Positions 23,486-58,957 of a stretch of 64,000 nt of DNA are shown one piece after another. A program made the translations under genes and the position numbers. Numbering within the stretch: position 1 is the first letter of the stretch; every line of letters starts with the position of its first letter. The stretch is from positions 806,001-870,000 of the forward strand of contig NC_086097.1 of assembly GCF_963921235.1 (NCBI RefSeq), in the 5' to 3' direction. The notes beneath the pieces are model-generated. The model was not told the origin of the DNA. It searched no databases and was given only the letters and a program-made list of their open reading frames with translations. The DNA is from Mobula hypostoma (taxonomy: Eukaryota).

Positions 23486-23487
23486 AT

Positions 23488-26253: not shown

Positions 26254-27019
26254 CATTGAACATACAGTGAAATGCACTGTTTGCGTTAACAACCAACATG
26301 CCCAAGGATGTGCTCAGGGCAGCCTGTAAGTATTGCCCAACATAGCAGGTCCTCAGTGCTTGGTAGAACAACACAGAACACAACACAACAAGCAACAAAA
26401 CAACAATGCAACAACAACTCAGCATTGAAAAGGGTCAGTAGCTGGGCGCTCACATATCAGATGATCTGCCTGGGCCCAGCACATTGATATAATCATAAGG
26501 AAGGGTACCAGCAGCTCTACTTTCTTAGGTGGTTAAGGAGATTCAGCTCATCACCAAACACTTCTGCAGATACACTGATGAAAGTAGAGTGCAGACACAA
26601 GGGATGCTGGAATCTGGAGCAACAATCGCCTACAAGAACTTAGCAGATCGAGCAACATCTGTGGGAAGAAAGAAACTGTCCACATTTCAGAAAGAACTTT
26701 TAGGCAGTCAGTGCATTGAGGAGGGGTGTAGCGGGTGAACTCCTCACCCTACCCAACATTACCTGCTGTCATCTTACACCTCAACAATATCTTTCCTCCT
26801 ATCATTGCTGCTCAATCCTTCATCAGATGGAATTCAATGCAGACAAGTGCCAGGTGTTGCACTTTGGCAGGACAAACCAGAGTAGGTTTTACATGGTGGG
26901 TGGTAGGGCAGAGGGAGTACAGATCCATAATTCCTTCAAAATGGTGTCATAGTCAGGTAGGGTCATAAAGAAAGCTTTTGTCACATTAGCCGACATAAAT
27001 CAATGCACTAAATAATGTT

Positions 27020-27256
27020 AAGCAACACACATCAAAGTTGCTGCTGAACGCAGCAGGCCAAGCGGCATCTCTAGGAAGAGGTACAGTCGACGTTTCGGGC
27101 CGAGACCCTTCATCAGGAATAACTGAAGGAAGGGTCTCGGCCTGAAACGTCGACTGTACCTCTTCCTAGAGATGCTGCCTGGCCTGCTGCGTTCACCAGC
27201 ATTTTGTGTGTGTTGCTTGAATTTCCAGCATCTGCAGAATTCCTCGTGTTTGCATT
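27020..27256. mobile_element. Palindromic Penelope-like non-autonomous element with 13-bp TSD
   Basis: Arms ~27020-27112 and ~27128-27218 are inverted copies. ACTAAATAATGTT occurs at 27007-27019 and 27257-27269. Confidence 0.8.
27084..27124 (-). ncRNA. Minimal type I hammerhead ribozyme motif
   Basis: Minus strand AUUC-CUGAUGA-A-GGGUCUCGGCCC-GAAAC-GUC-GACUG: catalytic boxes, stem II hairpin and GUC triplet; stem I has one mismatch. Confidence 0.7.
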
Positions 27257-27269
27257 ACTAAATAATGTT

Positions 27270-27568
27270 GCGTGGATTTCCAGCATCTGCAGATTTTGTC
27301 TTGTTTATGATTTGATTACTACACTACAAAGTCTCTCCAGGGATGCCTATTCCGAAGAACTTTAAATCTTCCCTTCAACGGGAGTTTAGTCAAACCCTCT
27401 GTCACTGCTCCCCTCTGTGATCTCTGCTGCTCTCCGACTGTCACCTCCCCAACTTTTAAATCTTTTCCTCATCTTTTGCCAAAGGGTCTCAGCCCAAAAC
27501 ATTAACTGTACTTTTTTCCCATAGATGCTGTCCGGCCTGCTGAGTTCTTTCAGCACTTTGTGTGTGTG
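27270..27568 (+). mobile_element. Older Penelope-like repeat with degenerate hammerhead core
   Basis: GGATTTCCAGCATCTGCAGA...AAAGGGTCTCAGCCCAAAAC...AGATGCTGTCCGGCCTGCTGAGTTC resembles the younger elements. Confidence 0.65.
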
Positions 27569-29329
27569 CTACTGAAAAAAGGAATTGGGTTGTTTTCTTG
27601 AAGTTGTACAAGACTTTGGCGAAGCCTAATTTGTAGTATTGTGTGCAGTTTTGGTCACCCACCTACAGGAAAGATGTAAACAAGGTTGAAAGAGGGCAGA
27701 GAAAATTTACAATGATGTTGCTGGGACTTGAGGATCTGAGTTATATGAAAAGGACTTTATTCCCTGAAGCTTAGGAGAATGAGGGGAGATTTGATACAGG
27801 CATACAAACTTACGAGGGACTTTGTTAGGGAAAATGCAATCAGGCTTTTTCCACAGAGATAGAGGTCATGGATTAAGGGTGAAAGGTGAAATGATTAAGG
27901 AGAACATGAGGAGGAACTTCTTCACTCAGAGGGTGATGTGAGTGTGGAATAAACTGCCAGCACAAGGGGTGGATGCGGGTTCAATTTCACCATTTACAAG
28001 AACTTTGGATGGTACATGAATGTGAGGGGTATAGAGGACCATGGTCCAGACGCAGGTCTATAGGACTAGGCAGATTAATGGTTCAGCGGAGTAGACGGGA
28101 CAAAGGGCCTATTTCTGTGCTGTAATGTTCCAGCATTCACTGACTCTGCCAGATTGTTTACTCGTGAAAGTATCGGGACTGGCTGTATCACAGTCTAACA
28201 TGGCAATGCGTATCCGCAAGAATGTAAGAAGCTGAAGACGTCAGTGGACTCATCATGGGCACATCCCTCTTCACCATCTCAAGTTGGCAACATCCATCAT
28301 CAAAGATCCCCACAATCCAGACCATGCTATCTTAGATACTGATGGTGGGAAAACAGTGCCAGCTGTGGCACTACAATTAGCACTGTTCCACCATATGTGA
28401 GGAAAAGAACCAGGAGAGCAGGGGAGCATACAAGTGTTTCAGTGTTCACATATAAGACTCAGAGAACATGCCACCACTCTGTTGCCAGTCAGGGATGTCT
28501 CAAAGTGGTGCAGGGCAGAAAGCAAACAGCTAGTTGTCGTGGAGTGCATCAGCTACCAGCAACACGGGGACAGTAATTGTTTAAATGTTTCATAGTTACT
28601 GTGAGAGAATTTGCCTTGACCTCAGAAAGCACATTCCAGATTGCAACCACTCAGTAGGAAATATTCCTCCTCAGATTCTCCCCATGCCTCCCACCCCTTA
28701 CCATAAATCTCTGTTCTCTTGTCTCAGATAGACCCTGCCATGGGAAAAATATGTTCAATATCTACCCATCTGAGGATAGAAAGTGAGGAACTGAGGTCTC
28801 AAGGAACAGACTATAATGATCATTTTGTTAAGTATTACTTCTTTATACTGGATGCAATCACATAGTAAATCTGTCATGCTTGTAGCCAATAATACAATTT
28901 GGGAAATCTTATAAATCTAATGACCATTGGCCTGGTTATGGAGTCGTTGTTCACAGGATAAGTGAATGGAGACAGGAGACAGTAGAGTAGGGGACAGAAC
29001 CGATCGCTGCAAGACCAGAGGATGAAGCCAACAGTCTGAGCTTGGAGTTAATGGCTATTGGACTAATGGATGGAGCCAGTAGGCTAGTGTGATGGAAACA
29101 GCAACTACACAGGTCATTGGCTGTAGCAGTAGGGGCACAGTTTGTGATCAGAATTAAAGAACAGGATGTGGCAATTATGACCTGCAAGTGGTGTTTGTGA
29201 CTTAAGGGCTGGAGTGAGTGGCCGGGAGGGAATTGAGTTGGTGGTCAGAGGAGAGTGGAGGCAGTCGCAGGCTGGGAGTAGAGTCAATGACAGGAAGGAA
29301 CTAAGTGATCGATCGATCGAGCAATACAG

Positions 29330-29790
29330 CATGGATACTGGCCGTTTGGCCCAACAAATTCATGCTGACTAAGCTACTAACCATCTGATCCCAATTACTT
29401 GTGTTCAGCCCATACCCCTTAAAGTCCCAATCCTTCCACATATCAATCTAAATGTCACTATTGTGCCTGCCTCACACACTTCCTCTGGCAGCTCATTCCA
29501 TTTACTTGTAGCCTCAATGTGAAAAAAAACTGCCACCATACTCTGCCAGCAATGCTCGTTTAAATGAGTGATGCACATCTACTCTGAGGTCCCTCTGTTC
29601 CATTTCACAACCTAGTTCCTTGGCAATCAGAAAAGGTTCTCTTTATTTCCACTCTTTGCCTCCTGCCAATCAGCAAGGCTTTACCATGCTAGTAGTTTTC
29701 CTGTCATACCACGGGCTCTTATGTTGTTAAGCAGCTTCCTGTGCAGCACCTTGTCAAAGGCCTTCTGAAAATCCAAATACACTACATTGA
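29330..29790 (-). mobile_element. Fragmented old CR1 remnants
   Basis: CR1-type 3' UTR near 29330-29520 and VVYLDFQKAFDKV in ORF 29681..29902. Confidence 0.7.
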
Positions 29791-30139
29791 TCAATTCAAT
29801 ATAGGTACATTGCGCCAATATAGGCGCAACGAAAGCGTGCTGTGCGCAAGGCCCAAGCAGCATCCACTGCCACGACAGCACCCACCCACTTGTGTCCCAC
29901 ATGTGGATGAGCTTTCAGGGCCCGGATTGGCCTCATCAGTCACCTCCGGACCCACAGCCACCAATCTCCCATTTGACTTTGAAGCCATGGTCATCTTCGA
30001 CTATGGAGGACGAACAACAACAACAACATAGGTACATTTAATGTCAGAGAAATGTATACAATATACATCCTGAAATTATTTTTCTTCGCAAACGTCCACC
30101 AGTGCCCAAAGAATGAATGACAGTGAAATGTTAGAACCC

Positions 30140-30460
30140 CAAAGTCTCCATATATCTTGCTCAACTCTCTATCACCTCACCCCTCTTCATTGTCCTAACC
30201 TCCCTCATCACCTTATCCCTCTTCATTTCCCCAATACCTCCTCACACAGCCTCATCCTCCCTCACCCCCATATCCCCCTCACATCCATTTCCATTCACCC
30301 ACCCTCACTCCCCCTCACACCCTCATCCTATCCTCCCTCACATCCATCCCCCATATCAATTTTACCCACATCCCTCACCTCTCCCCCATCTCCTCTTAAT
30401 TTTTCTCACACCTCCTAATCCTCTTTATGCACCTCGCACCCATCTTCCCCTCATCCAACA
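30140..30460. repeat. C/T-rich low-complexity tract
   Basis: CCCTC/CCTCA-rich and nearly devoid of G on the plus strand. Confidence 0.85.
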
Positions 30461-30800
30461 ACCCGGCGCTTGCTTTCACGCGGAGCCGAGTTCTGAGCCT
30501 CGTCTCCATCCTCGGCTTCTCCTCACTCACCCTCAGCCGCTCGATTTACTCCGAAACCGCCTCCGACAGCGGAGTCGCAGCATCAGCACCGGCTCCCGAG
30601 TCCCGCCTGTAAATACCCGAGCAGAGCCGGAATCGCCCGAGTTCCGTGGGCCGTGTCCGAGCAGAGCCGGAAACGCCCGAGCTCCGTGGGCCGTGTCCGA
30701 GTCGCCGGAAACGCCCGAGTTCCGTGCGCCGTGGCCGAGACGCTGGAAACGACCGACCTCTGTGTGATGTATGTTATGCAGCTTGGCCCCGCAGGAACGC
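30460..30800 (-). promoter_or_regulatory. CpG island, candidate promoter/first exon, with a 40-bp GC-rich tandem repeat
   Basis: Dense CpG in a CpG-poor background. About 3.5 copies of CCGAGCAGAGCCGGAA(T/A)CGCCCGAG(T/C)TCCGTGGGCCGTGT from 30617. Minus-strand donor AGG|GTGAGT at 30531/30530. Confidence 0.6.
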
Positions 30801-30906
30801 TTTCTAGTTCGACTGTATCTGTGCGTGGTTTAATAGAATAGTACAGCACAGTACAGGCCCTTCGGCCCACAAGGGATTCTTACTAGCTCTTCTTTCAGTT
30901 AGTCCT

Positions 30907-31570
30907 GAATTTTCTCTCCATTTAGAAAATAGTCTACCCTTTCATTTCTTCTACCAAAGTGCATGACCATACACTTCCTGACACTGTATTCCATCTGCCG
31001 CTTCTTTGTCCATTCTCCTAATCTGTTTTAGTCTTTCTGTAGCCTCTCTACTTCCTCAAAACTACCTGCCCCTCCACTTATCTTCATATGGTCTGTAAAC
31101 TCTGCAACAAAGCTATCAATTCCATCATCCAAATCATTGACATATAGCATAAAAAGAGGCCGTCCCAACACAGACCCCTGTGGAACACCACTAGACACCG
31201 GCAGCCAACCAGAAAAGCCCATTTACTCCCACTCTTGTTAAGCAACCTCATGAGTGACAACATGTCAAAGGCCTTCTAAAAATCCAAATACATGACATCC
31301 ACCGATTCACCTTTATCTATCTTGCTTGTTATTTCTTCAAAGACTTCAAACAGATATGTCAAGCAAATTTTTCTCTTAAGGAAAGCATGCTGAGTATGAC
31401 CTATTTTATCATGTGCCTTGAAGTCCCCCAAAACTGCATCCTTAACAATTGATTCCATCTTCTCAACCACTGAAGTTAGGCTGACTGGCTTATAATTTCC
31501 TTTCTTGTCTCTCTCCCTTGCAAATGGACAATTGCAATTTTTTCTCCTCCTGAGCCATGCCAGAATTTTT
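30907..31570 (-). mobile_element. Degenerate CR1 RT fragment
   Basis: ORFs 31028..31222 ([10 protein letters not shown]) and 31276..31608 (GNYKPVSLTS). Confidence 0.85.
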
Positions 31571-32124
31571 CTTTTCATGCAGAGAGCGGGGATCTGGGGG
31601 TCTTCCACCAGGCCATCAGACTGCTTAATTCATGCTGACGCAGCTGTATTTTTATGTTATATTGACTGTTCTGTTGTACATACTATTTAATATAAATTAC
31701 TTTAATCAGAATCAGGTTTATTATCACCGGCATGTGACGTGAAATTTGTTAACTTAGCAGCAGCAGTTCAATGCAATACATAATCTAGCAGAGAGAGAAA
31801 AGAAATAAATAAAATAAAACATAATAATATATCAACAAGTAAATCAATTACGTATATGGAATAGATTATTAAAAAATGTGCAAAAACAGAAATACTGTAT
31901 ATTAAAAAAAAGTGAGTTAGTGTCCAATGGTTCAATGTCTATTTAGGAATGGGATGGCAGAGGGGAAGAAGCTGTTCCTGAATCGCTGAGTGTGTGCCTT
32001 CAGGCTTCTGTACCTCCTACCTGATGGTAACAGTGAAAAAAGGGCATGCCCTGGGTGCTGGAGGACTTTAATAATGGACGCTGCCTTTCTGAGACACTGC
32101 TCCCTAAAGATGTCCTGGGTACTT

Positions 32125-32473
32125 CTCCTCCGGGAGAAGGCTCAGGAGCTTGAAGACTCATACAGCCAGATTTGGGAACAGCTTCTTTCCAACTGAGATA
32201 AGACCGCTGAACGGATCCTGACCCGGATCTGGGCGATACCCTCCAAATATCCGGTCCTGCCTCTCGGTTTTTTTTGCACTACCTTACTTTCCATTTTTTC
32301 TATTTTCTATTTATGATTTATAATTTAAATTTTTAATATTTACTAATTTTTACTATTTTTAATATTTAATATTTGTAATCCAGGGAGTGGGAAGCGCAGA
32401 ATCAAATATCGCTGTGATGATTGTACATTCTAGTACCAATTGTTTGGCAACAATAAAGTATAAAGTATAAGTA
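32125..32473 (+). mobile_element. Rex1/Babar-type 'family C' 3' fragment nested in family A, 5-bp TSD TACTT
   Basis: Highly similar to 43125-43460. TACTT at 32120-32124 and 32474-32478. Confidence 0.88.
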
Positions 32474-33130
32474 TACTTTGTAGGCTAGTGCCCAAGATAG
32501 AGCTGACTAGATTTACAACCTTCTGCAGCTTCTTTCGGTCCTGTGCAGTAGCTCCTCCATACCAGACAGTGATGCAGCCTGTCAGAATGCTCTACACGGT
32601 ACAACTATAGAAGTTTTTGAGTGTATTTGTTAACATGCCAAATCGCTTCAAACTATTAATAAAGTATAGCCACTGTCTTGCCTTCTTTATAACTACATCG
32701 ATATGTTGGGACCAGGTTAGGTCCTCAGAGATCTTGACACCCAGGAACTTGAAGCTGCTCACTCTCTCCATTTCTGATCCCTCTGAGGATTGGTGTGTCT
32801 TCCTTCGTCTTACCCTTCCTGAAGTCCACAATCAGCTCTTTCGTCTTACTGAAGTTGAGTGCCAGGTTGTTGCTGCGGCACCACTCCACTAGCTGGTATA
32901 TTTCGCTCCTGTATGCCCTCTCTTAACCACCTGAGATTCTACCAACAATGGTTGTATCATCAGCAAATTTGTAAATGGTATTAGAGCTATACCTAGCCAC
33001 ACAGTCATGGGTATATAGAGAGTAGAGCAGTGGGCTAAGCACACACCCCTGTGGTGTGCCAGTGTTGATCGTCAGCAAAGAGGATACGTTATCACCAATC
33101 CACACAGATTGTGGTCTTCCGGTTAGGGAG

Positions 33131-33962
33131 TGTCATAGTCATGGTCATAGTCATACTTTATTGATCCCAGGGGGAAATTGGTTTTCATTACAGTTGCACC
33201 ATAAATAATAATTAGTAATAGAACCATAAATAGTTAGATAGTAATATGTAAATTATGCCAGTAAATTATGAAATAAGTCCAGGACCAGCCTATCAGCACA
33301 GGGGGTCTGACCCTCCAAGGGAGGAGTTGTAAAGTTTGATGGCCACAGGCAGGAATGACTTCCTATGACGCTCTGTGCTGCATCTTGGAGGAATGAGTCT
33401 CTGGCTGAATGTACTCCTGTGCCCACCCAGTACGTTATGTAGTGGATGGGAGACATTGACCAAGATGGCATGCAACTTAGACAGCTTTTCAGACACCACC
33501 GTGAGAGAGTCTAGTTCCATCCCCACAACATCACTGGCCTTATGAATAAGTTTGTTGATCCTGTTGGTGTCTGCTACCCTCAGCCTGCTGCCCCAGCACA
33601 CAACAGCAAACATGATAGCACTGGCCACCACAGACTCGTAGAACATCCTCAGCATCGTCTGGCAGATGTTACAGGACCGCAGTCTCCTCAGGAAATAGAG
33701 ACGGCTCTGACCCTTCTTGTAGAAAGCGTCAATGTTCTTTGACCAGTCCAGTTTATTGTCAATACGTATCCCCAGGTATTTGTAATCCTCCACAATGTCC
33801 ACACTGACCCCCTGGATGAAAACAGGGGTCACCGGTGCCTTAGCTCTCCTCAGGTCTACCACCAGCTCCTTAGTCTTTTTCACATTAAGCTGCAGATAAT
33901 TCTGCCCACACCATGTGACAAAGTTTCCTACAGTAGCCCTGTACTCGACCTCATCTCCCTTG
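33131..33962 (-). mobile_element. Rex1/Babar-type 'family B' 3' fragment ((GACTAT)n tail) nested in family A
   Basis: LQLNVKKTKELVVD...YKYLG...SRLYFLRRL...SFLPVAIKLYN. Highly similar to 52040-52870. Confidence 0.9.
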
Positions 33963-35637
33963 TGGAGGATCCAATTACAGAGGGAGGTACAGAGGCCCAG
34001 GTTCTGCAACTTCTCAATCAATTTGTGAGAATTATCGTATTACATGCTGAGCTATAGTCGATGAACAGCATCCTGACGTAGGTGTTTGTGTTGTCCAGGT
34101 GGTCTAAAGCCGTGTGAAGAGCCATGGAGATTGCGTCTGCCGTTGACCTATTGTGGCGATAGGCAAATTGCAATGGGTCCAGGTCCTTGCTGAGGCAGGA
34201 GTTCAGTCTAGTCATGACCAGCCTCTCAAAGCATTTCATCACTGTCGATGTGAGTGCTACCGGGCGATAGTCATTAAGGCAGCTCAGATTATCCTTCTTA
34301 GGCACTGGTATAATTGTTGCCTTTCTGAAGCAAGTGGGAACTTCCGCCCGTAGCAGTGAGAGGTTGAAAATGTCCTTGAATACTCCTGCTAGTTGGTTGG
34401 CACAGGTTTTCAGAGCCTTACCAGGTACTCTATCGGGACCTTCTGCCTTGCGAGGATTCACCCTATTTAATAAAGACAGTCTAACATCGGCCTCTGAGAC
34501 AGAGATCACAGGGTCATCAGGTGCAGCAGGGATCTTCACAGCTGTAGTTGTGTTCTCCTTTTCGAAGCGGGCATAGAGGGCGTTGAGTTCATCCGCTAGT
34601 GAAGCACTGCTGTCGTTGGGTTTCGCTGTGTAGGAAGTAATGTCTTGCAGTCCCTGCCAGAGTTGCCGTACATCTGATATCGCCTTCAACCTCGTTCGAA
34701 ATTGTCCCTTCGCCCTTGAAGTAGCCCTCCGCAAATCATACCTGGTTTTCTGGTAAAGACCTGCATCGCCAGACTTGAATGCCACAGATCTAGTCTTCAG
34801 CAGATGACGTACCTCCTGGTTCATCCACGGCTTTTGGTTTGGGAATGTGCAGCAAGTCTTTGTAGGCACACACTCATCCACACAGGTTCTAATGAAGTCG
34901 GTAACAACTGCAACATACTCATCCAGATTCAAAGATGAATCCCTGAGTACAGTCCAGTCCATTGATTCAAAGCAATTGCACATTGTACATTCAGACAGAG
35001 ACGTAACATGAAGATTTTTACTCCTTATGTGTATGAAGGATGTACGGTAAGTGATAAAGTCAATTCAATTCAATGTGCCTATTCTGATTTTGTTTGTTTT
35101 TATTGTGCAGGGAGGGGGAAGTTGGGAATTGATGATTGTGCTACCTTTCATTTCTTTCTTGCTTTCGTGGCTACCTGGAGAAGAAGAATTTCAGAGTTGT
35201 ATATTTTGATAACAAATGACGGGTTGCAGATGACTGACAGCAATGAAGAACACACATATTTCATTCATGGATGTCAGTGAGTTACTGAGTCTTCTTTCTA
35301 TTCTGGGTGTCTCAGATGACGGATGCTGCTTTCCTGTGACATGGCTCCCAGGAGATGTGATTCAGCCAACAAGGTTATGTGCTGCCCTATCTTCTGCCTA
35401 GTTACTCTTTTTCCCTTAATACATTTATAACATTTATTTGGATTCTCTTTAATCCTCTCCACCAAGGTCATCCCATTCCCCCTCATTTCCCTCTTGATTT
35501 CCTTCTTAAGAACACTGCTGCATCTCCCTACAAGCCAGAGATTCACTCAGTCCCTACTGCCTGTATCTGACCCAGGCAGTGAACCTGGGAATGTATAGGG
35601 ACTAGGGCCTGCACAGTTTGTAGGGAATACAGGAACT

Positions 35638-35980
35638 AGAATCAGAATGAGGTTATTATCACTGACAAATGCCATGAAATATGATATGCTTGTGGCAGCA
35701 GTGCAGTGCATTACATTTTTAAATGACTATATTACAATAAAAAATGATACGAATAGATTGTAAAAGAGGAATAGTGAAGTGAGGTAGTGTTGATGGATTC
35801 ATGGACCATTCAGAAATCTGATGGTGGAGGGAAAGAAGCTGTTCCTACAATGTTGAGTGTGGGTCTTCAGGCTCCAGTATCTCCTCCTTGATGGTAGGTA
35901 GTAATGGAAAGAGGGATATCACGGAAGCTGATGGTCCTTAATGATATATGCCATGTAATTGAGACATCACCTACTGAAGA
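35638..35980 (-). mobile_element. Older Rex1/Babar-type 3' remnant
   Basis: GAATCAGAATGAGGTTATTATCAC tail and GGAAAGAAGCTGTTCCT...GTCTTCAGGCTCC resemble the family A 3' end. Confidence 0.6.
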
Positions 35981-36126
35981 GAGGATTCTGGTAAATTGAT
36001 ACAAACCACTCATTCTGTTTTACTAATGGTAGACAGTGACCGATCTGAGTCAGGTTCATTATGAATTTCCTGCTCTTGAACCAAACAGATGAACTTAGAG
36101 CGTGGATCAGTACTTGGAGCTATGAT

Positions 36127-36411
36127 GTCAAAGTTGCTGGTGAACGCAGCAGGCCAGGCAGCATCTGTAGGAAGAGGTGCAGTCGACGTTTCAGGCCGAG
36201 ACCCATCGTCAGGACGAACTGAAGGAAGAGTTAGTAAGAGATTTGAAAGTGGGAGGGGGAGGGGGAGATCCAAAATGATAGGAGAAGACAGGAGGGGGAG
36301 GGATGGAGCCAAGAGCTGGACAGGTGATTGGCAAAAGGGGTAGCAAGATTAATGTGCCAGCAACTTTGATGTGTGTTGCTTGAATTTCCAGCATCTGCAG
36401 AATTCCTCGTG
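36127..36411. mobile_element. Palindromic Penelope-like element with 14-bp TSD
   Basis: CTTGGAGCTATGAT at 36113-36126 and 36412-36425. TCAAAGTTGCTGG / CCAGCAACTTTGA inverted arms. Confidence 0.82.
36181..36220 (-). ncRNA. Minimal type I hammerhead ribozyme motif
   Basis: Minus strand GUC-CUGACGA-U-GGGUCUCGGCCU-GAAAC-GUC-GACU. Confidence 0.65.
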
Positions 36412-36528
36412 CTTGGAGCTATGATTTTGTGGGCATTACAGAGACTTGGATGGCTCAAGGGCAGGAATCGTTACTTCGAGTTCCAAGCTTTAAGTGTTTC
36501 AGAAAGGGTAGGGAGAGAGGCAAAAGAG

Positions 36529-37192
36529 ATTAGATTATGAGGACATTCAGTCCTCGTTTATTGTCATTTAGAAATGCATGCATTAAAAAATGATACATTG
36601 TTCCTCCAGAATGATATTGCAGAAACACAGGACAAACCAAGACTGAGACTGACAAAACCACATAATTATAACATATAGTTACAACAGTGCAAAGCAATAC
36701 CATAATTTGATAAAGAGCAGACCATGGGCACGGTAATAAAAGTCTCAAGTCCCGATAGCCCATCATCTCACACAGATGGCAGAAGGGAGAATCTCTCCCT
36801 GCCATGAACCTCCAAGCGCCGCAAACTTGCCGATGCAGCACATTCGGAAGTGCCCAACTGCAGCGGGCTCCAAGTCTGTCCAAAAACTTCGAGCCTCCAA
36901 CCAGCCCTCTGACACCAAGCACGGAGCACCATCTCTGCTGAGCACCTCGACCCCACCCCAGCCGCCGAGCAACAAGCAAAGCCGAGGACTCGGGGCCTTC
37001 CCCTCTGGAGATTCTGAATCACACAGTAGCAGCGGCAGCGAAACAGGCATTTCAGAAGTTTCACCAGATGTTCCTCCGTGCTGTCACGTATGTCTGCTCA
37101 AATCAGGATTGTGCATGGCCCCCCACTTGACAGATAACAGACATCACCACCGGAGTGGCTGCTCCGAGCTGCATCACGCCGCCATCTTCTCA
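36529..37192 (-). mobile_element. Non-coding ~660-bp retroposon (SINE-like/non-autonomous) nested in CR1
   Basis: Minus strand begins AGAAGATGGCGGCG and ends GACAATAAACG...CATAATCTAATC. Interrupts the CR1 APE region. Confidence 0.7.
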
Positions 37193-40903: not shown

Positions 40904-41325
40904 AGAATAGGTTGTGTGAACTCGGCCTTTTTTCCTTGGAGCGACGGAGGATGAGAGGTGACCTGATAGAGGTATATAAGATGATGAAAGGCATTGACCC
41001 TGTGGATAGTCAGAGGCTTTTTCCCAGGGCTGAAATGGCTAGCACGAGAGGGCATAGTTTTACAGTGCTTGGAAGAAGGTACAGAGGAGATGTCAGGGGT
41101 AAGTTTTTTACACAGAGAGTGGTGAGTGTGTGGAATGGGCTGCCAGCAGCGGCAGTGGAGGCGGAAACGATAGGGTCTTTTAAGAGACTCCTGGATGGGT
41201 ACATGGAGCTTAGAAAAATAGAGGGCTATGGGTAAAGCCTAGGTGGTACTAAGGTAGGGACATGTTCGGCACAGCTTTGTGAGCTAAAGGGCCTGTATTG
41301 TGCTGTAGGTTTTCTACGTTTCTAT

Positions 41326-41667
41326 GAGACCAACTGAATATTGAAAGAACTAGACAGGCTGGATGTGGTGAGGATGTTTCCTTTGGTGGGGTAAGCAGAA
41401 TGAGAGAGCGCAGCCTCAGAATTGAGGGGGACGTTTTAGAACAGAAGTAAGAAGGAATTTTTTTTTGCCAGAGTAGTGAACCTGTGGAATATTGGTAAGA
41501 TTGCAGTGGAGGCAAAGTCCGGCGGTATATTTAAAGCAGAAGTTGATCATTTTCTGATTGGTCAGGGTAACATAGGATATGGCAAGAAGGCATAATGGAA
41601 TGGCAGAGCAGACTTGATGGGCTGAATGGCCTAATTCTGCTCCTATGTCTTATGGTCTCATGGTCTT
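41326..41667 (+). mobile_element. Degenerate CR1 3' end
   Basis: Ends AATGGCCTAATTCTGCTCCTATGTCTTATGGTCTCATGGTCTTA. Confidence 0.8.
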
Positions 41668-41689
41668 ATTCAGCAGAGATGGAGTGATA

Positions 41690-42057
41690 ATCAACCGAAG
41701 ATCCAGTGGGGGCATGGTGGTAATCCACTGAACAGCCAGTGGAGACATGGTGGTAATCCACTGAACAGCCAGTGGAGACATGGTGGTAATTCACTGAACA
41801 ACCGGGGGCATGGTGGTAATTCACTGAACAGCCAGCGGAGACGTGGTGGTAATCCACTGAACAGCCAGCGGAGACGTGGTGGTAATTCACTGAACAGCCA
41901 GTGGAGACATAGTGGTAATTCACTGAACAGCCAGTGGAGACGTGGTGGTAATCCACTGAACAGCCAGTGGAGACATGGTGGTAATCCATTGTACAGCCGG
42001 GGGGGGGGCGGGGGGACATGGTGGCAATCCACTGAACAACCAGTGGAGACATGGTGG
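41690..42057 (+). repeat. 33-bp minisatellite, left part (CAGCCAGTGGAGACATGGTGGTAAT(C/T)CACTGAA)
   Basis: Visible tandem units; 11-aa periodicity in ORF 41666..42052. Confidence 0.95.
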
Positions 42058-43461
42058 CATGCCTGAATGACTATCAACCTGTGGCTCTGACATCAATTGC
42101 TATGAAGTGCTTCGAGAGATTGGTTATGGCACACATCAACCACCACCTACCAGTCAACCTCGACGCTTTGCAATTCGCCTACCGGAGCAACAGGTCAATG
42201 GCAGCTGCCATCTCTCTGGCCCTACATTCCTCCTTAGAACACCTGGAGAATAAAGACGCATATGCAAGGCTCCTTTTCATTGACTACAGCTCTGCCTTTA
42301 ATACCATCATTCCAAATAAACTGATTCCTGAGCTCCGGAACCTGGGCCTTAGCACTCAGATCTGCAGCTGGATCTTCAACTTCCTCACAGACAGGACCCA
42401 GGCTGTAAAAATAGGGGACAAGCTCTCCTCTACAATTACTCTGAGCACCGGTGCCCCACAAGGCTGTGTACTCAGCCCCCTGCTGTACTCACTGTACACC
42501 CATGATTGTGTAGCCAAGCTTCCATCAAACTCAATATATTGTTTGCTGATGACACAACAATTGTAGGCCATATCTCGGGTAATGATGAGTTTGAGTACAG
42601 AGAGGAAATTAAGAACCTGGTGGCATGGTGCGAAGACAATAACCCATCCCTCAATGTCAGCAAGACGAAGGAATTGGTTGTTGACTTCAGAAGAAGTAGC
42701 GGACTGCACGACCCAATTTACATTGCTGGTGCGCAAGTGGAACAGGTCAAAAGCTTTAAGTTTCTCGGGGTCAATATCACAAATGACCTGACTTGGTCCA
42801 ACCAAGCAGAGTCCACTGCCAAGAAGGCCCACCAGTGCCTTTACTTCCTGAGAAAACTAAAGAAATTTGGCCTGTCCCCTAAAACCCTCACTAATTTGTA
42901 TAGATGCACCGTAGAAAGCATTCTTCTAGGGTGCATCACAACCTGGTTTGGAAGTTGTCCTGTCCAAGACCAAAAGAAGCTGCAGAAGATCCTGAATACA
43001 GCGCAGCACATCACACAAACCAATCTTCCGTCCGTGGACTCACTTTACACCGCACGCTGTCGGAGCAGTGCTGCCTGGATAATCAAGGACACGACTCACC
43101 CAGCCAACTCACTTTTCGTCCCTCTTCCCTCTGGGAGAAGGCTCAGGAGCTTGAAGACGCGTACAGCCAGATTTGGGAACAGCTTCTTTCCAACTGTGAT
43201 AAGACTGCTGAACGGATCCTGACCCGGATCTGGGCCGTAGCCTCCAAATATCCGGACCTGCCTCTCGGTTTTCTCGCACTACTTTACTTCCTATTTTTCT
43301 ATTTTCTATTTATGAGTTATAATTTAAATTTTTAATACTTACTAATTTTTAGTATTTAATATTTGTAATCCAGGGAGTGTGAAGCACAAAATCAAATATC
43401 ACTGTGATGATTGTACATTCTAGTACCAATTGTTTGGTGACAATAAAGTATAAAGTATAAA
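42051..43461 (+). mobile_element. Rex1/Babar-type 'family C' LINE, 5'-truncated, (AAAGTAT)n tail
   Basis: ORFs 42051..42566 and 42506..43222 ([29 protein letters not shown]), one frameshift near 42540. CAATAAAGTATAAAGTATAA end. Confidence 0.93.
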
Positions 43462-43640
43462 AGCCAGTGGAGACGTGGTGGTAATTCACTGAACAGCCAG
43501 TGGAGACATGGTGGTAATTCACTGAACACACAGTGGAGACGTGGTGGTAATTCACTGAACAGCCAGTGGAGACGTGGTGGTAATTCACTGAACAGCCAGT
43601 GGAGACCTGGTGGTAATTCACTGAACACACAGTGGAGTCA
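43462..43640 (+). repeat. 33-bp minisatellite, right part
   Basis: Same unit resumes immediately after the LINE tail. Confidence 0.93.
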
Positions 43641-44221
43641 GAGGGGTAAATCCAACTGGAGACTGAAGAACTTCTGGCATAGTGAATGCTGGAAGACGTC
43701 AAGAATTTTCAAAGGAAATTGGATAAGTAATGAAAGGACGGGAAGATCGCTGTACACAAGGAACTGAAGAGATTTGCTGAAGAAACAGCACAGGTTGTGA
43801 TGGGTTGAGCAACCTCCCCTCCTACGTAGTGTGATGCCCGCTGCGATGAAGGTGCAGATGTTTGGTGAGGTGGGGTGGGCAGGAAGGGGCTGAATTGGTA
43901 ATGGTCTGTACGGAGAAGCTGCAGTCTGAGCCGGCAGAGCTGCAGCTGCAGCAGTGCAGAGCGGGGATCACCACTGCAGCATCATCGCAAGGGGACGGAA
44001 CAGACAGTTCTCCGAGGACATTGCAGAAGCAGGTAATGATCAATATAAACTGACAACAGCAGCCAGAGAGCTGGCATTAACACCAGTGCCATCAGTCAGA
44101 CTGCGCAGGGCATCGTCCGCTGTTATTCAGCATGGTGAAGGGAGAGGGGAGAGAACAATGGAGGCTGTGGACGGAGCAAAGGCTGGCTGTAGTCTGTACA
44201 TGCAAGCACCAGGTACTACAC

Positions 44222-45073
44222 AGGAGAGAGGGGGAGAGGGGAGAGGGGAGGGGGAGAGACAGAGGGAGGGGAGAGAGAGAGACAGAGGGAGGGGAGGGAG
44301 AGGGGAGCGGGGAGGGGGGATGGGAGGTAGAGAGGGAGAGGGGGGAGAGACAGAGAGCAGTGAAATGAAAAGAGTACAACTGACAGTGAAAGAGGAGGTG
44401 AGATGGTGGGGGAAACACACAGATACGCAGCGAGAGAGAGTGGGGGAAGGGAGAAAGGAACGGGCAGGCAGAGACGGGACTACATAAAGGAAGAAAAAGG
44501 GATACACATCAAAATACTGAGGAAAAGAAAGGGACAAGCATAAAGGCGGAGGGAGAGCTCGGGAGATGGTGAGAGTGAGAGACAGATACAGAGTGGGGGC
44601 AGACAGAGACAGGACAGACAGAGGGCTGAAACGGATACAGAGAGGGGGAGATGGAAACAGAGAAGTGGAGACAGACAGAAAGAAGGGAGGGAGACAGAGA
44701 GTGGGGAAGAGTAGATACAGGGAGGGGGGAGACAGATAAAGGGAGCGGGAGATGGAGACAGAGAGGGGAGACAGAGAGAGAGGGGGAGATGGAGACAGAG
44801 ATATGGGAAGGGAGACAGAGAGAGTGGAGACAGAGGCAGAGAGGGTGGTGGAGAAACAGGGAGATGGGGAGACAGATACAGGGAGTGGGAGATGGCGACA
44901 GAGAGAGGGGGAGATAGAGACAAGGAGAGAGGGAGAATGAGAATAAGAGACGGAACAAAGATGCAGGAGATGGCAAATTGGACGGGTAGACAGAGACAGA
45001 GAGGGACAAAGAGCGGGGTAAGACAGAGAAAGGGTCAGAGAAAATGAGGCAGAGAGAGGGGAAATATTTAAAC

Positions 45074-45117
<44 letters not shown>
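44222..45117. repeat. G/A-rich low-complexity tract ending in a (GA)n microsatellite
   Basis: GGAGACAGAGAG-type motifs; (AG)n at ~45082-45115. Confidence 0.9.
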
Positions 45118-45274
45118 GGAAATACCTTGAGAGAAGCAGTGAGAGAATCAAAATGTAAGGAGGGTCAAACACAGGGAATATGATAGAGGAAAAGTGTAAA
45201 ATTATAATGAAAACATCAATGTCCTTCAAAAGAACAATGGACTAAGGATAGAAGAAGGAAAAAGAAACATTGCG

Positions 45275-46140
45275 GACCCTAGTCCTGCCTGGATCTCAGA
45301 CCCTGGTCCTGTCTGGATCTCAGATCCTTGTCCTGTCTGGATGTCAGACCCCTGTCCTGTCTGGATGTCAGACCCCTCTCATCTGGATCTCGGACCCTCC
45401 TCCTGCCTTGATCTCAGGCCCTTCTCCTGTCTGGATCTCAGATCCTTGTCCTGTCTGGATGTCAGACCCTTGTCCTGCCTGGATCTCAGACACTTGTCCT
45501 GTCTGGATCTCAGACCCATGTCCTGTCTGGATGTCAGACCTTTGTCCTGCCTTGATCTCAGAAGCTTGTCCTTCCTGGATCTCAGACCCTTGTACTGCCT
45601 TAATCTCAGACCCTTGTCCTGTCTGGATTGCAGATCCTTGTCCTGACTGAATGTCAGGCCCTTGTCCTGCCTTTGAACACAGACCCTTGTGCTGCCTGGA
45701 TATCAGACCCTTGCCCTGCCTTATTCTCAGACCCTTCTCCAGTCTAGATCTCAGACCCTTGTCCTGCCTGGATCTCAAACCCTTGTACTGCCTTAATCTC
45801 AGACCCTTGTCCTGTCTAGATCTCAGACCATTGTCCTGTCTGGATCTCAGACCCTTTTCTTGCCTGGATGTCAGATCCTTGTCCTGTCTGGATATTAGAC
45901 CCTTTTCTTGTCTGGATCTCAGACCCTTGTCCTGCCTGGATCTCAGACTCTTGTCCTGCATTAATCTCAGACCGTTGTTCTGCATTAATCTCAAACCCTT
46001 GTCCTGTCTGGATCTCAGACCCTTTTGTGGTCTGGATGTCAGATCCTTGTCCTGTCTGGATCTCAGACCCTTGTCCTGCCTTAATCTCAGACCCCTCTCC
46101 AGTCTGGATCTCAGGCCCCTCTCCTGAATGGATATCAGAC
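45275..46140 (+). repeat. 24-bp minisatellite (CTGGATCTCAGACCCTTGTCCTG(T/C))
   Basis: Tandem units; 8-aa periodicity (WISDPCPV / LDLRPLSC) in overlapping ORFs. Confidence 0.95.
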
Positions 46141-46579
46141 ATGCCATTTGCAGTTCTTGCACTCACCACGAGGTTCACTGTTAATTATTCTCAGGAATAT
46201 TTGCTCAAGCAACAACTTCCAGTTTTATTAATGCCAATAGCCACTGTTAACCAGGGTCATTGTTGTTAATCCTGTTCACTATTTACCACAGACAGCCGAG
46301 GAGGCCAAGTCACTGGGTACAGTGAAAGGCACAGTTGATATGTCCTGGATCAGTCAGTGTGTCAAAGATTACGTGGAGAATGCAGGAGAATGGGGTTGAG
46401 AGGATAAGAAATTACCCATGGTGTAAAGGCAGAGCAGATTTGAAGTGCCAAATGGCCTAGTTGTGTTCCTATGTCTGATGGACTAAACATGTCCATTCCC
46501 GTGTAACCAACCAACAACCAACAATCCCCACATGCTAAATTTACAAGGCAACAGTAACTAGTCTCAGTGTGATAAAAGC

Positions 46580-46702
46580 AGAGATTCTGCAGATGCTGAA
46601 AATCTAGAGGAACACAAAAAAAATAGTGGAGGAACACAGCAAATCAGGCACCATCTATGAAGGGAATAGACAGTTGATATACAGGTCAAAACCCTTCATC
46701 AG
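46580..46702 (-). mobile_element. Degenerate Penelope-like arm
   Basis: TTCTGCAGATGCTGAAAATCTAGAG...AAACCCTTCATCAG parallels the arms of the younger elements. Confidence 0.6.
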
Positions 46703-46799
46703 TAAAAATGACCACATGTTGACACAAACAATCCCATTTGCTTCAGAAGAGGAAAGCTACTTTTCTTAAAAGCTCTGAGCCACACATACCTCCAGACCA

Positions 46800-47066
46800 T
46801 CGGTGTACTGATCTGACCCACGATTATCTACAGCCCACGTGTACTCCCAGCCCATCAGTGTGTCACTGTGACCCCCACGTCTCCAGTCCGTCCGTGTGTC
46901 ACTCTGACCTACACTCTCCAGTCCGTCAGTGTGTCACTCTGACCCCTTCGTCTCCAGCCCATCAGTGTGTCACTCTGACCCACACTTACCCCCAGCCCAT
47001 CAGTGTGCTTTGGCCCACACATACTGCTAGCTCATCAGTGTGTCGCTGTGACCCACATGTACTTCC
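46800..47066 (-). repeat. Diverged, inverted monomers of the 38-bp satellite
   Basis: CAGCCCATCAGTGTGTCACTCTGACCC is the reverse complement of the satellite's GGGT(C/T)AGAGTGACACACTGATGGGCTG, at ~38-bp spacing. Confidence 0.85.
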
Positions 47067-47074
47067 AGTGTGCT

Positions 47075-48143
47075 CTGACATTGAATTCTTCTGACTTGAA
47101 TTAAGAAAGTGCAAGAGTAAAAGTAGCCAGAAAGCAGTTATATACAATCCTCCCAACAGGAGCCGTGATGTGGACCACAGATTACAACAGGAAATAGAAA
47201 AGGCATGTCAAAATGGCAAGGTAATGATAGTCATGGGCGATTTCAACATGCAGATTGATTGGGTAAGTCAGGTTGGTAATGGATCTCAAGGGAGTGAGTT
47301 TTTTGAATCCTACAAAATGGCTTTTAAGAGCAGCGTTTCATTGAGCCTAATAGGGGATCAGCTATCACTGCATTGTGTGTTATGTAATGATCCAAAGTTC
47401 TGGAGTTGATTAGGGAGCTTAATGTAAAAGAATCCTTAGGAGGCAGTGATCACATTATGATTGAGTTCAACCGGAAATTTGACCATAAGTCTGGCCCATC
47501 GAGTCTGCTCCACCATTCAATCATGGCTGATCCTTTTTTCTTCTCCTCCTCAACCCCAGTTCCCAGCCTTCTCCCCGTAACCTTTGATTCCACGTTCAAT
47601 CAAGAACCTTTTGAACTCATCATCTTAGAAAAGATGTGCTGACATTGGAAAGAGTTCAGAGGAGGTTCACAGGGATAATTCCTGGAATGGAAGGGTAGTC
47701 ATACGAGAAACATTTGATGGCTCTGAGTCTGTACTCGCCGAAATTTAGAAGAATGAGGGGGTTCTCATTGAAACCTTTCAAGTGTTGAATGGCCTAGACA
47801 GAGTAGATGTGGAAATGATGTTTTCCAGTGTGAGGGAGTCTAGGACAAGAGGGCACAGCCTCGAGTTAGAGGGGCATCCATTTAAAACGGAGATGTGGAG
47901 AAATTTCTTTAGCCAGATGGTGGTGAATTTCTGGAATTTGTTACCATAGGCAGTTGTGGAGGACAGGTCGTTGGGTGTATTTTAGGCAGATATTGATAGG
48001 TTCTTGATTATACATGGCATGAAAGTTTACAGAGAGAAGGCCGAGGAGTGGAGCTGAGGAGGGGAAACAGGATCAGCCATAATTGAATGGCAGAGCAGAC
48101 TCGATGAGACAAGTGGCTTAATTCTGCTCCTGTATCTTATGAT
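47075..48143 (+). mobile_element. CR1 fragments: APE piece, short inverted 3'-end piece (~47482-47610), RT end and tail
   Basis: MGDFNMQIDW and LGGSDHIMIEF in ORFs; CR1 3' UTR ending TCTTATGATCT at ~48143. Confidence 0.8.
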
Positions 48144-48195
48144 CTGACCCACATGTACCTCCAGTCCATCAGTGTGTCACTCTCACCCACATGTA
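48144..48195 (-). repeat. Further inverted satellite-like monomer(s)
   Basis: CTGACCCACATGTACCTCCAGTCCATCAGTGTGTCACTCTCACCCACATGTA. Confidence 0.8.
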
Positions 48196-48695
48196 CAGTA
48201 CCAGTAAAAATTATTCACACCTCCTCCCCTGCTGGTTTTCATGTTTTATTATTTTACAACATTGAAGCACAGTGGATTTAATTTGGCTTTTTTGAGACTG
48301 ATCAACAGAAAAAGACTCACGGCAAAGTGAAAACAGATCTCTACAAAGTGAACTAAATTAATTGCAAATGTAAAATACAAAATAATTGATTGCATAAGTA
48401 TTCATTCCCTTCACGTCAGTATTTAGTAGATGCACCTTTGGCAGCAATTACAGCCTTGAGTCTGTGTGGATAGGTCTCTAACAGCTTTGCACATCTGGTC
48501 ACTGCAATTTTTCCCCATTCTTCTTTACAAAACCCAAGCTCTGTCAGATTACATGGGGATCGTCAGTGAACAGCCCTTTCCAGGTCCAGCCACAAATTCT
48601 CAATTGAATTAAAGTCTGGACTCTGACTTGGCCACTCCAGGACATTAACTTTGTTGCAGTTGAGCCATTCCTGTGTAGCTTTTTTGCCGTGTCCA
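48196..48695 (-). mobile_element. Tc1/mariner transposon remnant (one TIR plus transposase C-terminal motif)
   Basis: TA|CAGT terminus at 48194-48199. Minus strand ~48590-48646 encodes [19 protein letters not shown] (Tc1 SPDLNPIE motif). Confidence 0.85.
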
Positions 48696-48699
48696 ATTG

Positions 48700-49475
48700 A
48701 GAACCTATCAAGTTCCGCCTTAAATACACCCAACAGCTGCCTGTGGTAACAAATTCACCAGCCCCTGGCTAAAGAAATTTCTCTGCATCTCTGTTTTAAA
48801 TGGACGTCCCTCTATCCTGAGGCTGTACCCTCTTGTCCTGGACTCTCCCACCATGGGAAATGTCCTTTCCACATCTACTCTGCCTAAGCATTTCAAAATT
48901 CAAAAGATTTCAATGAGATCCAGCCTTCATCCTTCTAAATTCCAGTGAGTACAGACCCAGAGCTATCAAATGTTCCTCATATGATAACCCTTTCAATCCC
49001 AGAATCATCCTTGTGAACTTCCTCTGGACCCTCTCCAATGCCAGCACATCTTTTTCTGAGATGAGGAACCCAAAACTGTTCACAATACTCAAGGTGAGGC
49101 CTCACCAGTGTCGTATAAAGCCTCAGTGTCACATCTTTGCTCTTGTATTCTAGACCTCTTGAAATTAATGCTAACATGGCATTTGCCTTCCACACCACCA
49201 ACTCTACCTGCAAGTTAACCTTTAGTGTGTTCTGCACAAGGACTCTCAAATCCCTTTGCATCTCAGATTTTTGGATTTTCAACAGATTCATCAGGCAAGA
49301 TTTTCCCTTAAGGAAACCATACTGACTTTGTCCCATCTTGACCTGTGTCACCAAGTACTCCATAACTTCTTCCTTAACAATTGACTCCAAAATCTTCCCA
49401 ACCACTGAGGTCAGGCTAACTTGTCTATAATTTCCTTTCTGCAGCCTTCCTCCTTTCTTAAAGAGTGGGATGAGA
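48700..49475 (-). mobile_element. Degenerate CR1 with internal deletion
   Basis: ORF 48977..49618 jumps from GKSCLMNLL to EMQRDL; LVRPHLEYCEQFW. Confidence 0.85.
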
Positions 49476-50897
49476 CATACTGGACAACAGCACATAGAAA
49501 CCATAGAAACCATAGAAACTACAGCACAGAAACAGGCCCTTTGGCCCTTCTTGGCTGTGCCGAACCATTTTCTGCCTAGTCCCACTGACCTGCACACGGA
49601 CCATATCCCTCCATACACCTCCCATCCATGTATCTGTCCAATTTATTCTTAAATGTTAAAAAAGAACCCGCATTTACCACCTTGTCTGGCAGCTCATTCC
49701 ATACTCCCACCACTCTCTGTGTGAAGAAGCCCCCACTAATGTTCCCTTTAAACTTTCCCCCCCTCACCCTTAACCCATGTCCTCTGTTTTTTTTCTCCCC
49801 TTGCCTCAGTGGAAAAAGCCTGCTTGCATTCACTTTATCTATACCCATCATAATTTTATACACCTCTATCAAATCTCCCCTCATTCTTCTACGCTCCAGG
49901 AAATAAAGTCCTAACCTATTCAACCTTTCTCTGTAACTGAGTTTCTCAAGTCCCGGCAACATCCTTGTAAACCTTCTCTGCACTCTTTCAACCTTATTTA
50001 TATCCTTCCTGTAATTTGGTGACCAAAACTGAACACAATACTCCAGATTCGGCCTCACCAATGCCTTATACAACCTCATCATAACATTCCAGCTCTTATA
50101 CTCAGTACTTCGATTAATAAAGGCCAATGTACCAAAAGCTCTCTTTACGACCCTATCTACCTGTGACGACACTTTTAGGGAATTTTGTATCTGTATTCCC
50201 AGATCCCTCTGTTCCACTGCACTCCTCAGTGCCTTACCATTAACCCTATATGTTCTACGTTGGTTTGTCCTTCCAACGTGCAATACCTCACACTTGTCAG
50301 TATTAAACTCCATCTTGCCATTATTCAGCCCATTTTTCCAGCCGGTCCAAGTCCCTCTGCAGGCTCTGAAAACCTTCCTCACTGTCTACTACACATCCAA
50401 TCTTTGTATCATCAGCAAACTTGCTGATCCAATTTACCACATTATCATCCAGATCATTGATATAGATGACAAATACAATGGACCCAGCACTGATCCCTGT
50501 GGCACACCACTAGTCACAGGCCTCCACTCAGAGAAGCAATTCTCTACCACCACTCTCTGGCTTCTTCCATCGAGCCAATGTCTAATCCAATTTACCACTT
50601 CTCCATGTATACCTAGTGACTGAATTTTCCTAACTAACCTCCCATGCGGGACCTTGTCAAAGGCCTTACTGAAGTCCATGTAGACAATATCCACTGCCTT
50701 CCCTTCATCCACTTTCCTGGTAACCTCCTCGAAAAACTCCAACAGATTGGTCAAACATGACCTACCACGCACAAAGCCATGTTGACTCTCCCTAATAAGC
50801 CCGTCTATCCAAATGCTTGTAGGTTCTGTCTCTTAGTACTCCCTCCAATAACTTACCTACTACTGACGTTAAACTCACCAGCCTATAATTTCCCGGA

Positions 50898-51100
50898 ACA
50901 CACATAAAAGTTGCTGGTGAACGCAGCAGGCCAGGCAGCATCTCTAGGAATAGGTGCAGTCGACGTTTCAGGCCGAGACCCTTCGTCAGGACTAACTGCA
51001 CCTCTTTCTAGAGATGCTGCCTGGCCTGCTGCGTTCACCAGCAACTTTTATGTGTGTTGCTTGAATTTCCAGCATCTGCAGAATTCCTGTTGTTTGCATT
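50898..51100. mobile_element. Palindromic Penelope-like element with 14-bp TSD (one mismatch)
   Basis: TATAATTTCCCGGA 50884-50897 and TATAATTTCCTGGA 51101-51114; inverted arms. Confidence 0.82.
50957..50997 (-). ncRNA. Minimal type I hammerhead ribozyme motif
   Basis: Minus strand AGUC-CUGACGA-A-GGGUCUCGGCCU-GAAAC-GUC-GACU; stem I AGUC/GACU fully paired. Confidence 0.72.
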
Positions 51101-51589
51101 TATAATTTCCTGGATTACTTTTCGATCCTTTTTTAAACAACGGAACAACATAAGCCACTCTCCAATCCTCCGGCACTTCACCTGTAGACAGCGACATTTT
51201 AAATATTTCTGCCAGGCCCCAGCACATGAAGGATGGTGACCAGTTCCTTATAAGCCTTTAATCTTTTGCTCATGAAACGTAACCAGGGCCAAATCTGAGG
51301 ACATCAGGACAACTCCCTGTGCTTGCATATTCATGGTGATTCCTCCCTGATACAGAGGTATGACCACAAACTTGGGACTTTGAACTTTAAACCAGAGTGG
51401 TGATGGAAGATTCTGGCATCTTGTCAGAGAGGTAGCATTCAATGGGTGATCATTGACTCTCCCAGATTATACACAGATCCCAGCCATTAGTGGGATTCAC
51501 CTGTCTTTAGAGAGTGATAAGTAGTCTATCTGCTTTTAAGTTTCACTGTGATTTCGTGTCCTCTCATGACTTACTTGCTTACTCAGGTT

Positions 51590-58429: not shown

Positions 58430-58526
58430 CTGAAAATGACTGTTTCTGACGGGTAAATAAAGTTAAAAAGAAAACCCGGATGGGAGTTGGGTTAGCCAAT
58501 CGGAAAACCCAGACAGGAGACAAGGG

Positions 58527-58957
58527 TTTCTGCAGATGCTGAAAACCCAGAGCAACACACACAAAATGCTGGATGAACCCAGCAGGTCAGATAACATCTC
58601 TGGACAGAAATCCCTTAGACCAGGAGTTCACAACCTTTTTTATGCCATGCACTCTAACTATTAATCGGGAGTCTGTGAACTCCAGTTTGGGAACCCCTGC
58701 CTTAGGCGGATGTCTATCCTGTAGAGGCTTTCCTCCTGCTTTCCATGGGAGTTCAGTGAGACACTTCTTCACTGCTATCCCCCCATTATCTTGGCTGATC
58801 TCCAGTAGACAGATTGTGATGCTCCAAAATTCTTATTCTGTCTTCTGTCCCTTCCTTTCCAGTCCAAATGAAGGATCTCAACACCAACCTTGACTCTTTA
58901 AAATTTCCTTAGATGCTGCCTGACCTGCTGAGTTCATCCAGCATTTTGTGTGTTTCT
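58527..58957. mobile_element. Older palindromic Penelope-like element
   Basis: ACACACAAAATGCTGGATGAACCCAGCAGGTCAG (~58557) is inverted against CTGACCTGCTGAGTTCATCCAGCATTTTGTGTGT (~58920). Confidence 0.7.
58621..58699. mobile_element. 79-bp hAT-type (Charlie/MER5-like) MITE
   Basis: TIRs CAGGAGTTCACAA / TTGGGAACCCCTG; 8-bp TSD CCTTAGAC (58613-58620) / CCTTAGGC (58700-58707). Confidence 0.8.

Follow-up and report, generated by a model that had tools for sequence, protein, structure and literature searches.

The window analysed here, 64,000 nucleotides of Mobula hypostoma contig NC_086097.1, is vertebrate DNA rich in repeats. Positions 1-16354 are taken up by a 38-bp satellite, and LINE fragments in the remainder carry domains of the RT, AP-endonuclease and SGNH types. 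Of the 107 open reading frames of at least 100 aa, 31 were scanned with Pfam, and 13 of these matched RT or AP-endonuclease families. We confirmed three short insertions, E1 (27020-27256), E2 (36127-36411) and E3 (50898-51100), which a preliminary description had read as recently mobile palindromic elements carrying minimal hammerhead ribozymes. The whole inserts measure 203-285 bp and contain no open reading frame. Their parts are listed in Table 1, together with older relatives in the window.

These insertions are real and fairly young. The proposed target-site duplications (TSDs) of 13-14 bp are borne out, with 13/13 identical positions in E1, 14/14 in E2 and 13/14 in E3; random pairs of window positions gave a 13-mer with at most one mismatch within ±3 bp in 209 of 200,000 trials. 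E2 and E3 both break CR1 coding sequence, and for each of them an uninterrupted CR1 paralogue in the window, in which the TSD word occurs once, represents the empty site: positions 21714-21993 for E3 (261/280 identical) and 62840-62701 for E2 (104/140 identical). Public contigs that skip E2 are present in two organisms. E1 is flanked by a CR1 piece on one side and an older relative on the other, and no empty site spanning it was found among paralogues in the window. Recent mobility is supported for all three.

Each insert follows the same order: TSD, the reverse-complemented element end lacking its tail, a joint, the forward end with its tail, and TSD. A head-to-head inverted, 5'-truncated copy is thereby present in all three young inserts, and also in the older pair O2/O3. 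Of the inverted arms ascribed to each insert, inverted sequence does occur in all three, but the arms themselves range from 92 bp (E1) through 63 bp (E3) to 13 bp (E2), and with only 13 bp E2 is therefore barely palindromic. Nor do the arms form a palindrome that reaches both TSDs, because tails of 38 (E1), 42 (E2) and 43 bp (E3) stand at the right end only, with no mirror image. The 92-bp arms of E1 differ by five substitutions and two gaps, the 63-bp arms of E3 by two substitutions. Microhomology of 4 nt is found at two of the three joints (E1 and E3), where simple arithmetic predicts at least 4 nt at about 1.6% of random joints; the E2 joint holds a 17-nt filler instead. Other copies continue beyond 36339, the upstream end of the E2 arm. 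Among the three young copies compared, the length of the arms, the joint and the reach upstream all vary. Folds of arm plus tail are no more stable than those of shuffled sequences (z -0.1 to -1.3).

Table 1. Parts of the young inserts E1-E3 and their older relatives (O1-O5 and one fragment) in the window.
Feature	Position	Strand	Basis
E1 left TSD, 13 bp	27007..27019	+	sequence match
E1 inverted arm: tail-less 3' end of the element, starting 16 nt ahead of C3	27020..27132	-	
E1 minimal hammerhead, C3..C17; stem I 2 contiguous bp	27089..27116	-	
E1 forward arm, begins in core (G8) at 4-nt microhomology 27129-27132	27129..27218	+	
E1 tail, 38 bp, mirror copy absent	27219..27256	+	
E1 right TSD	27257..27269	+	sequence match
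E2 left TSD, 14 bp, within CR1 endonuclease region	36113..36126	+	paralogue + sequence match
E2 inverted arm, including ~125 nt of pyrimidine-rich upstream sequence	36127..36339	-	
E2 minimal hammerhead; private changes at 36205 and 36216; stem I 3 bp	36185..36212	-	
E2 joint filler, 17 nt, no source found	36340..36356	.	
E2 forward piece: 13 bp overlap with inverted arm + 42 bp tail	36357..36411	+	
E2 right TSD	36412..36425	+	sequence match
E3 left TSD, 14 bp, within CR1 ORF2	50884..50897	+	paralogue + sequence match
E3 inverted arm, starting 9 nt ahead of C3	50898..50998	-	
E3 minimal hammerhead; stem I 5 bp, stem II 4 bp	50962..50989	-	
E3 forward arm, begins at 4-nt microhomology	50995..51057	+	
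E3 tail, 43 bp	51058..51100	+	
E3 right TSD, one mismatch at a CpG	51101..51114	+	sequence match
O1: tail, ATG-started block, decayed hammerhead, tail-less arm	27266..27568	+	
O2: ATG block shared with O1, decayed hammerhead, tail-less arm	58708..58956	+	
O3: older arm + tail, inverted composite with O2	58520..58608	-	
O4: decayed hammerhead, arm, tail	46584..46705	-	
O5: most divergent relative, 11/11 core retained	19070..19147	-	
31-bp fragment, from just 5' of the hammerhead region	30878..30908	-	

We searched the window for the hammerhead with the pattern CTGANGA-N9-17-GAAACGTH, using 100 shuffles as a control. The minus-strand motif described earlier for each insert was recovered: the pattern matched three times in the window, always inside E1-E3, and 0 times in the 100 shuffles. 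Every insert thus holds one core-intact minimal type I hammerhead, located only in the inverted arm, with 11/11 core positions (C3-A9, G12-A15.1, U16.1, H17) in E1, E2 and E3 alike and with stem III reduced to ACGU without a loop, as had been claimed. An intact stem I of 5 bp is found only in E3; the break in the E2 stem is private to that copy, because 94% of the depth of sequencing run X1 reads the pairing base. An Rfam scan gave 0 matches in the window at E<=1; library hammerhead models therefore miss the minimal form.

At two dinucleotides of the core, N7-G8 and 11.1-G12, the young copies carry C or U at the first base and retain the catalytic G. Judged from this small sample of sequences, the variable base beside a retained G fits selection in master elements. 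The absence of the G8 CpG variant among the differences listed for public contigs was also considered as a sign of selection and was set aside, since that listing is cut short and the private changes of E2 truncate alignments at that point. In four old copies the core is kept at 34/44 positions versus 168/240 for the arm (Fisher p=0.37). A core no better preserved than its arm is as expected for dead copies; the only one of the four with 11/11 core positions is O5, the most divergent (arm 34/60). In folding predictions, the hammerhead shape of isolated motifs lies 4-5 kcal/mol above the minimum. In whole minus-strand transcripts the predicted probability of stem II is 0.0 for E1, 0.03 for E2 and 0.92 for E3, and that of the closing pair of stem I is at most 0.02. 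No insert has two sense motifs, and a cis dimer is therefore impossible. Dimer cleavage of PLE hammerheads is reportedly the subject of Lunse et al. 2017. The hammerheads in the E1-E3 stubs would be inherited from the master element and are probably inert and decaying neutrally.

The presence of decayed relatives was confirmed near 19.1, 27.3-27.6, 30.9, 46.6 and 58.5-58.95 kb. Two of them, O1 and O2, share a block of 96 bp at 68% identity that none of 1000 shuffles matched as well. This block sits just before the decayed hammerhead and opens with an in-frame ATG, followed by a protein-like alignment of about 30 codons. The upstream sequence of E2 does not match it (447 and 596 of 1000 shuffles score equally). 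O1 has the permuted order tail-block-hammerhead-arm over about 300 bp, compatible with direct tandems of pseudo-LTRs (pLTRs). O1 and O2 may represent an older unit, about 300 bp long, internally deleted and possibly non-autonomous, similar to the Penelope-derived retrozymes of Li et al. 2026. A candidate TSD of the O2/O3 composite (12/14) lies away from the ends and is tentative.

Public contigs bear out the suggestion that copy number may be high: the family is of very high copy, with 97,790 and 88,257 contig records aligning to E2 in DNA-type runs of two organisms. In run X1 the summed depth over E2 exceeds that over the flanking CR1 by a factor of about 15-30, a ratio that is not a copy number and leaves some differences uncounted. 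Among 15 joints listed (281 more were present), eight pass from the inverted arm to the forward piece at other points, four are strand changes, two skip the insert and one runs backward. Loose ends past the tail are heterogeneous (agreement 0.41-0.43), and those beyond the E2 upstream end share a continuation (agreement 0.68-0.70). The shared upstream continuation, together with the varied joints, indicates that the family is longer than any of the inserts and that its joints are variable. Six CpG-decay variants occur at 0.8-2.5% in run X12, which is only guessed to be RNA, versus 6.5-8.6% in X1; the difference would fit, weakly, transcription of younger copies. A raw DNA run (X21) was uninformative, with 2 of 10,085,944 reads on E2.

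A Penelope-like origin is supported by the combination of inverted and forward anatomy, a one-sided tail, the minimal hammerhead, the TSD and heterogeneous 5' truncation. Within this framework the element's 3' end, its pLTR, consists of UTR, minimal hammerhead, arm and tail. The autonomous partner was sought in several ways. An RT/GIY-YIG protein was found neither by a six-frame scan of the window for protein motifs of Penelope-like elements (PLEs) nor by Pfam among the 31 of 107 frames scanned. Pattern scans of contigs from viruses, metagenomes and genomes brought up no relatives; three pattern matches in viral contigs were dismissed as chance in GC-rich phage DNA. Protein searches with the ORF-like piece of O1/O2 yielded 1 candidate in one case and 22 in another, of which not one reached E<=10, from a query too short for such a blank to count, and two phmmer matches to this piece proved to be unrelated repeat proteins. 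With the partner protein not found, PLE membership therefore rests on non-coding anatomy.

This anatomy has clear precedents. In Craig et al. 2021 (PMC8557442), PLE insertions are described as 5'-truncated, often adjoining an inverted truncated copy, with a tail of 30-40 bp at one end. For rotifers, Arkhipova et al. 2013 (PMC3846280) report the same PLE anatomy, there with TSDs of 8-10 bp and with microhomology at the joints. E1-E3 resemble EN+ PLE insertions, as these sources portray them, in the head-to-head inverted truncated copy, the one-sided tail, the TSD, the strong 5' truncation and the microhomology joints, but differ from them in TSDs of 13-14 rather than 8-10 bp, tails of 38-43 rather than 30-40 bp, and the absence of an ORF. 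The ribozyme is equally familiar. The minimal hammerhead without a stem III loop (min-HHR) was defined for metazoan PLEs by Cervera and De la Pena 2014 (PMC4209133), who place it in the fish elements Xena, Poseidon and Neptune, describe opposite-strand hammerhead pairs 100-700 bp apart, and give no cleavage for monomers and low cleavage for dimers; cartilaginous fishes are unnamed in the parts of the text consulted and in two of the three supplementary files. As far as that text describes the min-HHR, our motifs share its type I topology, the absence of a helix III loop, the palindromic 15.2-16.2, a helix I of 4-5 bp, the unpaired base after A9 and a G at 10.1. Unlike the Schistosoma form described there, with 7-8 bp in helix II, those of E1-E3 have a 4-bp helix II in which position 11.1 is often U (G-U). 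Searches of the literature on hammerheads or Penelope in sharks, elasmobranchs and cartilaginous fish, and of supplementary files, gave no description of the family. The PLE footprint itself is already published, and E1-E3 belong to a known and largely ordinary kind.

The closest biochemical model is PAc, a Poseidon element from Anolis (Frangieh et al. 2024, PMC11167929). According to that study, the PAc protein, a predicted dimer, cleaves both strands of the target in vitro and extends each of them, with reverse transcription starting at two sites bounding the tail. The PAc hammerhead, which cleaved only with protein, is dispensable for in vitro insertion and left no RNA-seq read ends; later joining steps and the TSD are excluded from the reconstitution as described. 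The hammerhead lies upstream of the tail in PAc as in our family. The PAc ORF starts inside the hammerhead, whereas in the E1-E3 family the reading frame that follows the hammerhead is not open.

We conclude that E1-E3 very probably derive from the 3' end of a very high-copy endonuclease-positive (EN+) PLE, inserted with severe 5' truncation and, as we infer, from two primers. In such an integration the element's RT/GIY-YIG protein would place nicks 13-14 nt apart on the two strands of the target, and each target 3'-OH would prime cDNA on element RNA, one at the tail end and the other about 40 nt inside. The top-strand primer, using the inner start site, would produce the tail-less inverted arm, and the bottom-strand primer, starting at the tail end, the forward arm. 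Both cDNAs would stop early and then anneal via about 4 nt of microhomology or filler, after which repair would fill in the TSD. The palindrome would arise at insertion and would not be the replicating unit. The polarity of both arms agrees with two-strand priming. Neither of the two papers listed in a single search for Penelope with twin priming dealt, by its title and abstract opening, with the PLE mechanism.

A related possibility, which we rate as unlikely, is that the same PLE family forms its inverted arm by self-priming or fold-back on one template, not from both target strands. Arkhipova et al. 2013 (PMC3846280), in the section available, favour self-priming on an antisense template for head-to-head palindromes of rotifer PLEs. 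The E3 arms are concordant in their variants, so that one template fits E3 equally well, and the E3 joint uses hammerhead stem I bases. E1 speaks against fold-back: its forward arm carries a variant shorter by 2 bases that O2 and O3 match exactly, and its inverted arm the longer variant of E2 and E3. The difference is a linked 2-base gap plus substitution, each variant being exactly common to other copies, and it stands beside a perfect TSD. A fold-back copy would start identical, so the mosaic arms of E1 favour two templates, or gene conversion at a later date. The 13-bp overlap of E2, too short to be informative on variants, is joined through a 17-nt filler, which also sits poorly with fold-back. 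Discordance thus stands at one of two informative inserts, the E1 sequences hinting at two templates. The E3 forward arm begins at +2 to +6, counted from where the hammerhead is predicted to cleave; as one of six arm ends, this could be chance. That the stubs are double-primed PLE integrations copying two RNA molecules (E1), and sometimes a hammerhead-cleaved RNA template (E3), is something we put forward only tentatively, as a rather doubtful extension of the two-primer model.

The non-autonomous palindromic family proposed earlier is not supported as a discrete unit, given that arm length, joint and upstream extent differ and contigs show other joints. In a high-copy family, such heterogeneous joints are best read as those of truncated insertion stubs, not of a fixed MITE or a tandem retrozyme. 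A discrete, short, retrozyme-like element with its own RNA replication and PLE proteins supplied in trans seems to us quite improbable. The 96-bp block of O1/O2 before the hammerhead and the permuted, roughly 300-bp order of O1 lean towards it, as do the PLE-derived retrozymes that, in the accessible text of Li et al. 2026 (bioRxiv 10.64898/2026.07.22.740005), average 363 bp in one chondrichthyan. With animal non-LTR retrozymes, as described by Cervera and De la Pena 2020 (PMC7229834) and Li et al. 2026, E1-E3 share a non-coding length of a few hundred bp, a type I hammerhead, an origin from PLE pLTRs and a TSD of more than 4 bp. Retrozymes in these sources consist of units in direct tandem, every unit having its own hammerhead, whereas E1-E3 are single, inverted and heterogeneous, with no joint or length in common. 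The term retrozyme-like therefore fails for them: no direct tandem units were found among E1-E3 or in the window, nor any partial direct tandems forming pLTRs among its young copies. The upstream sequence of E2, moreover, is unlike the O1/O2 block and extends further in other copies. Finally, a DNA-transposon MITE that carries a hammerhead-like motif by chance would account for short, non-coding inserts with inverted repeats and a TSD, but is scarcely credible and was rejected, as there are no fixed-length TIRs abutting both TSDs (the inverted repeats vary from 13 to 92 bp and do not abut the right one) and the motif, seen 0 times in shuffles, combines all 11 core bases with both stem I and stem II. 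To our knowledge, a 13-14 bp TSD matches no common DDE superfamily.

As elements, E1-E3 matter little, since both motif and anatomy are already published. Their value is as material: the family is huge and young, its TSDs are clean and its subfamilies can be told apart by markers, and it lends itself to counts of arm mosaicism and of 5'-end positions, which bear on the steps of PLE integration after priming and on the role of the hammerhead. The reach of the two-template reading rests on the tens of thousands of copies in the family. If it is true, the formation of inverted pLTRs and the cleavage of PLE hammerheads in vivo would be answerable from genome sequence alone.

Within the window, the other features (see table) include a near-complete CR1-type LINE and tandem repeats. 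G skew is strong in the 38-bp satellite, and the minisatellite unit of 33 bp is present at two sites.

Features of the window
Feature	Position	Strand	Description
38-bp satellite	1-16354		433 copies, 85% matches
CR1-type LINE, near-complete	20667-24216	-	ordered SGNH esterase ORF, AP endonuclease, RT
O1, older relative	27266-27568	+	~300 bp
Minisatellites	45275-46140, 54414-56664, 57322-58037, 41684-41998, 43462-43637		units of 24, 38, 39 and 33 bp
Short element	~58622-58698		imperfect terminal inverted repeats; 8-bp flanking repeat with 1 mismatch
O2, older relative	58708-58956	+	

The decayed relatives O1 and O2 of the young Penelope-like stubs have in common an ATG-started block a short way upstream of the hammerhead, and the order in O1 is permuted, with the tail first. 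This organisation possibly represents an old non-autonomous derivative. The inverted pair formed by O2 and a further older relative, O3, is broken up by the short inverted-repeat element, which resembles a hAT-type MITE.

For the 17-nt filler at the joint of the young stub E2 (36340-36356), a search of the window returned no convincing source. The insertion point of the stub E1 lies right where the tail of an older family copy begins (27257-27310), and the final 4 bases of E1's target-site duplication are identical to the family sequence. Although only a single case, it would fit insertion directed at the element's own end.
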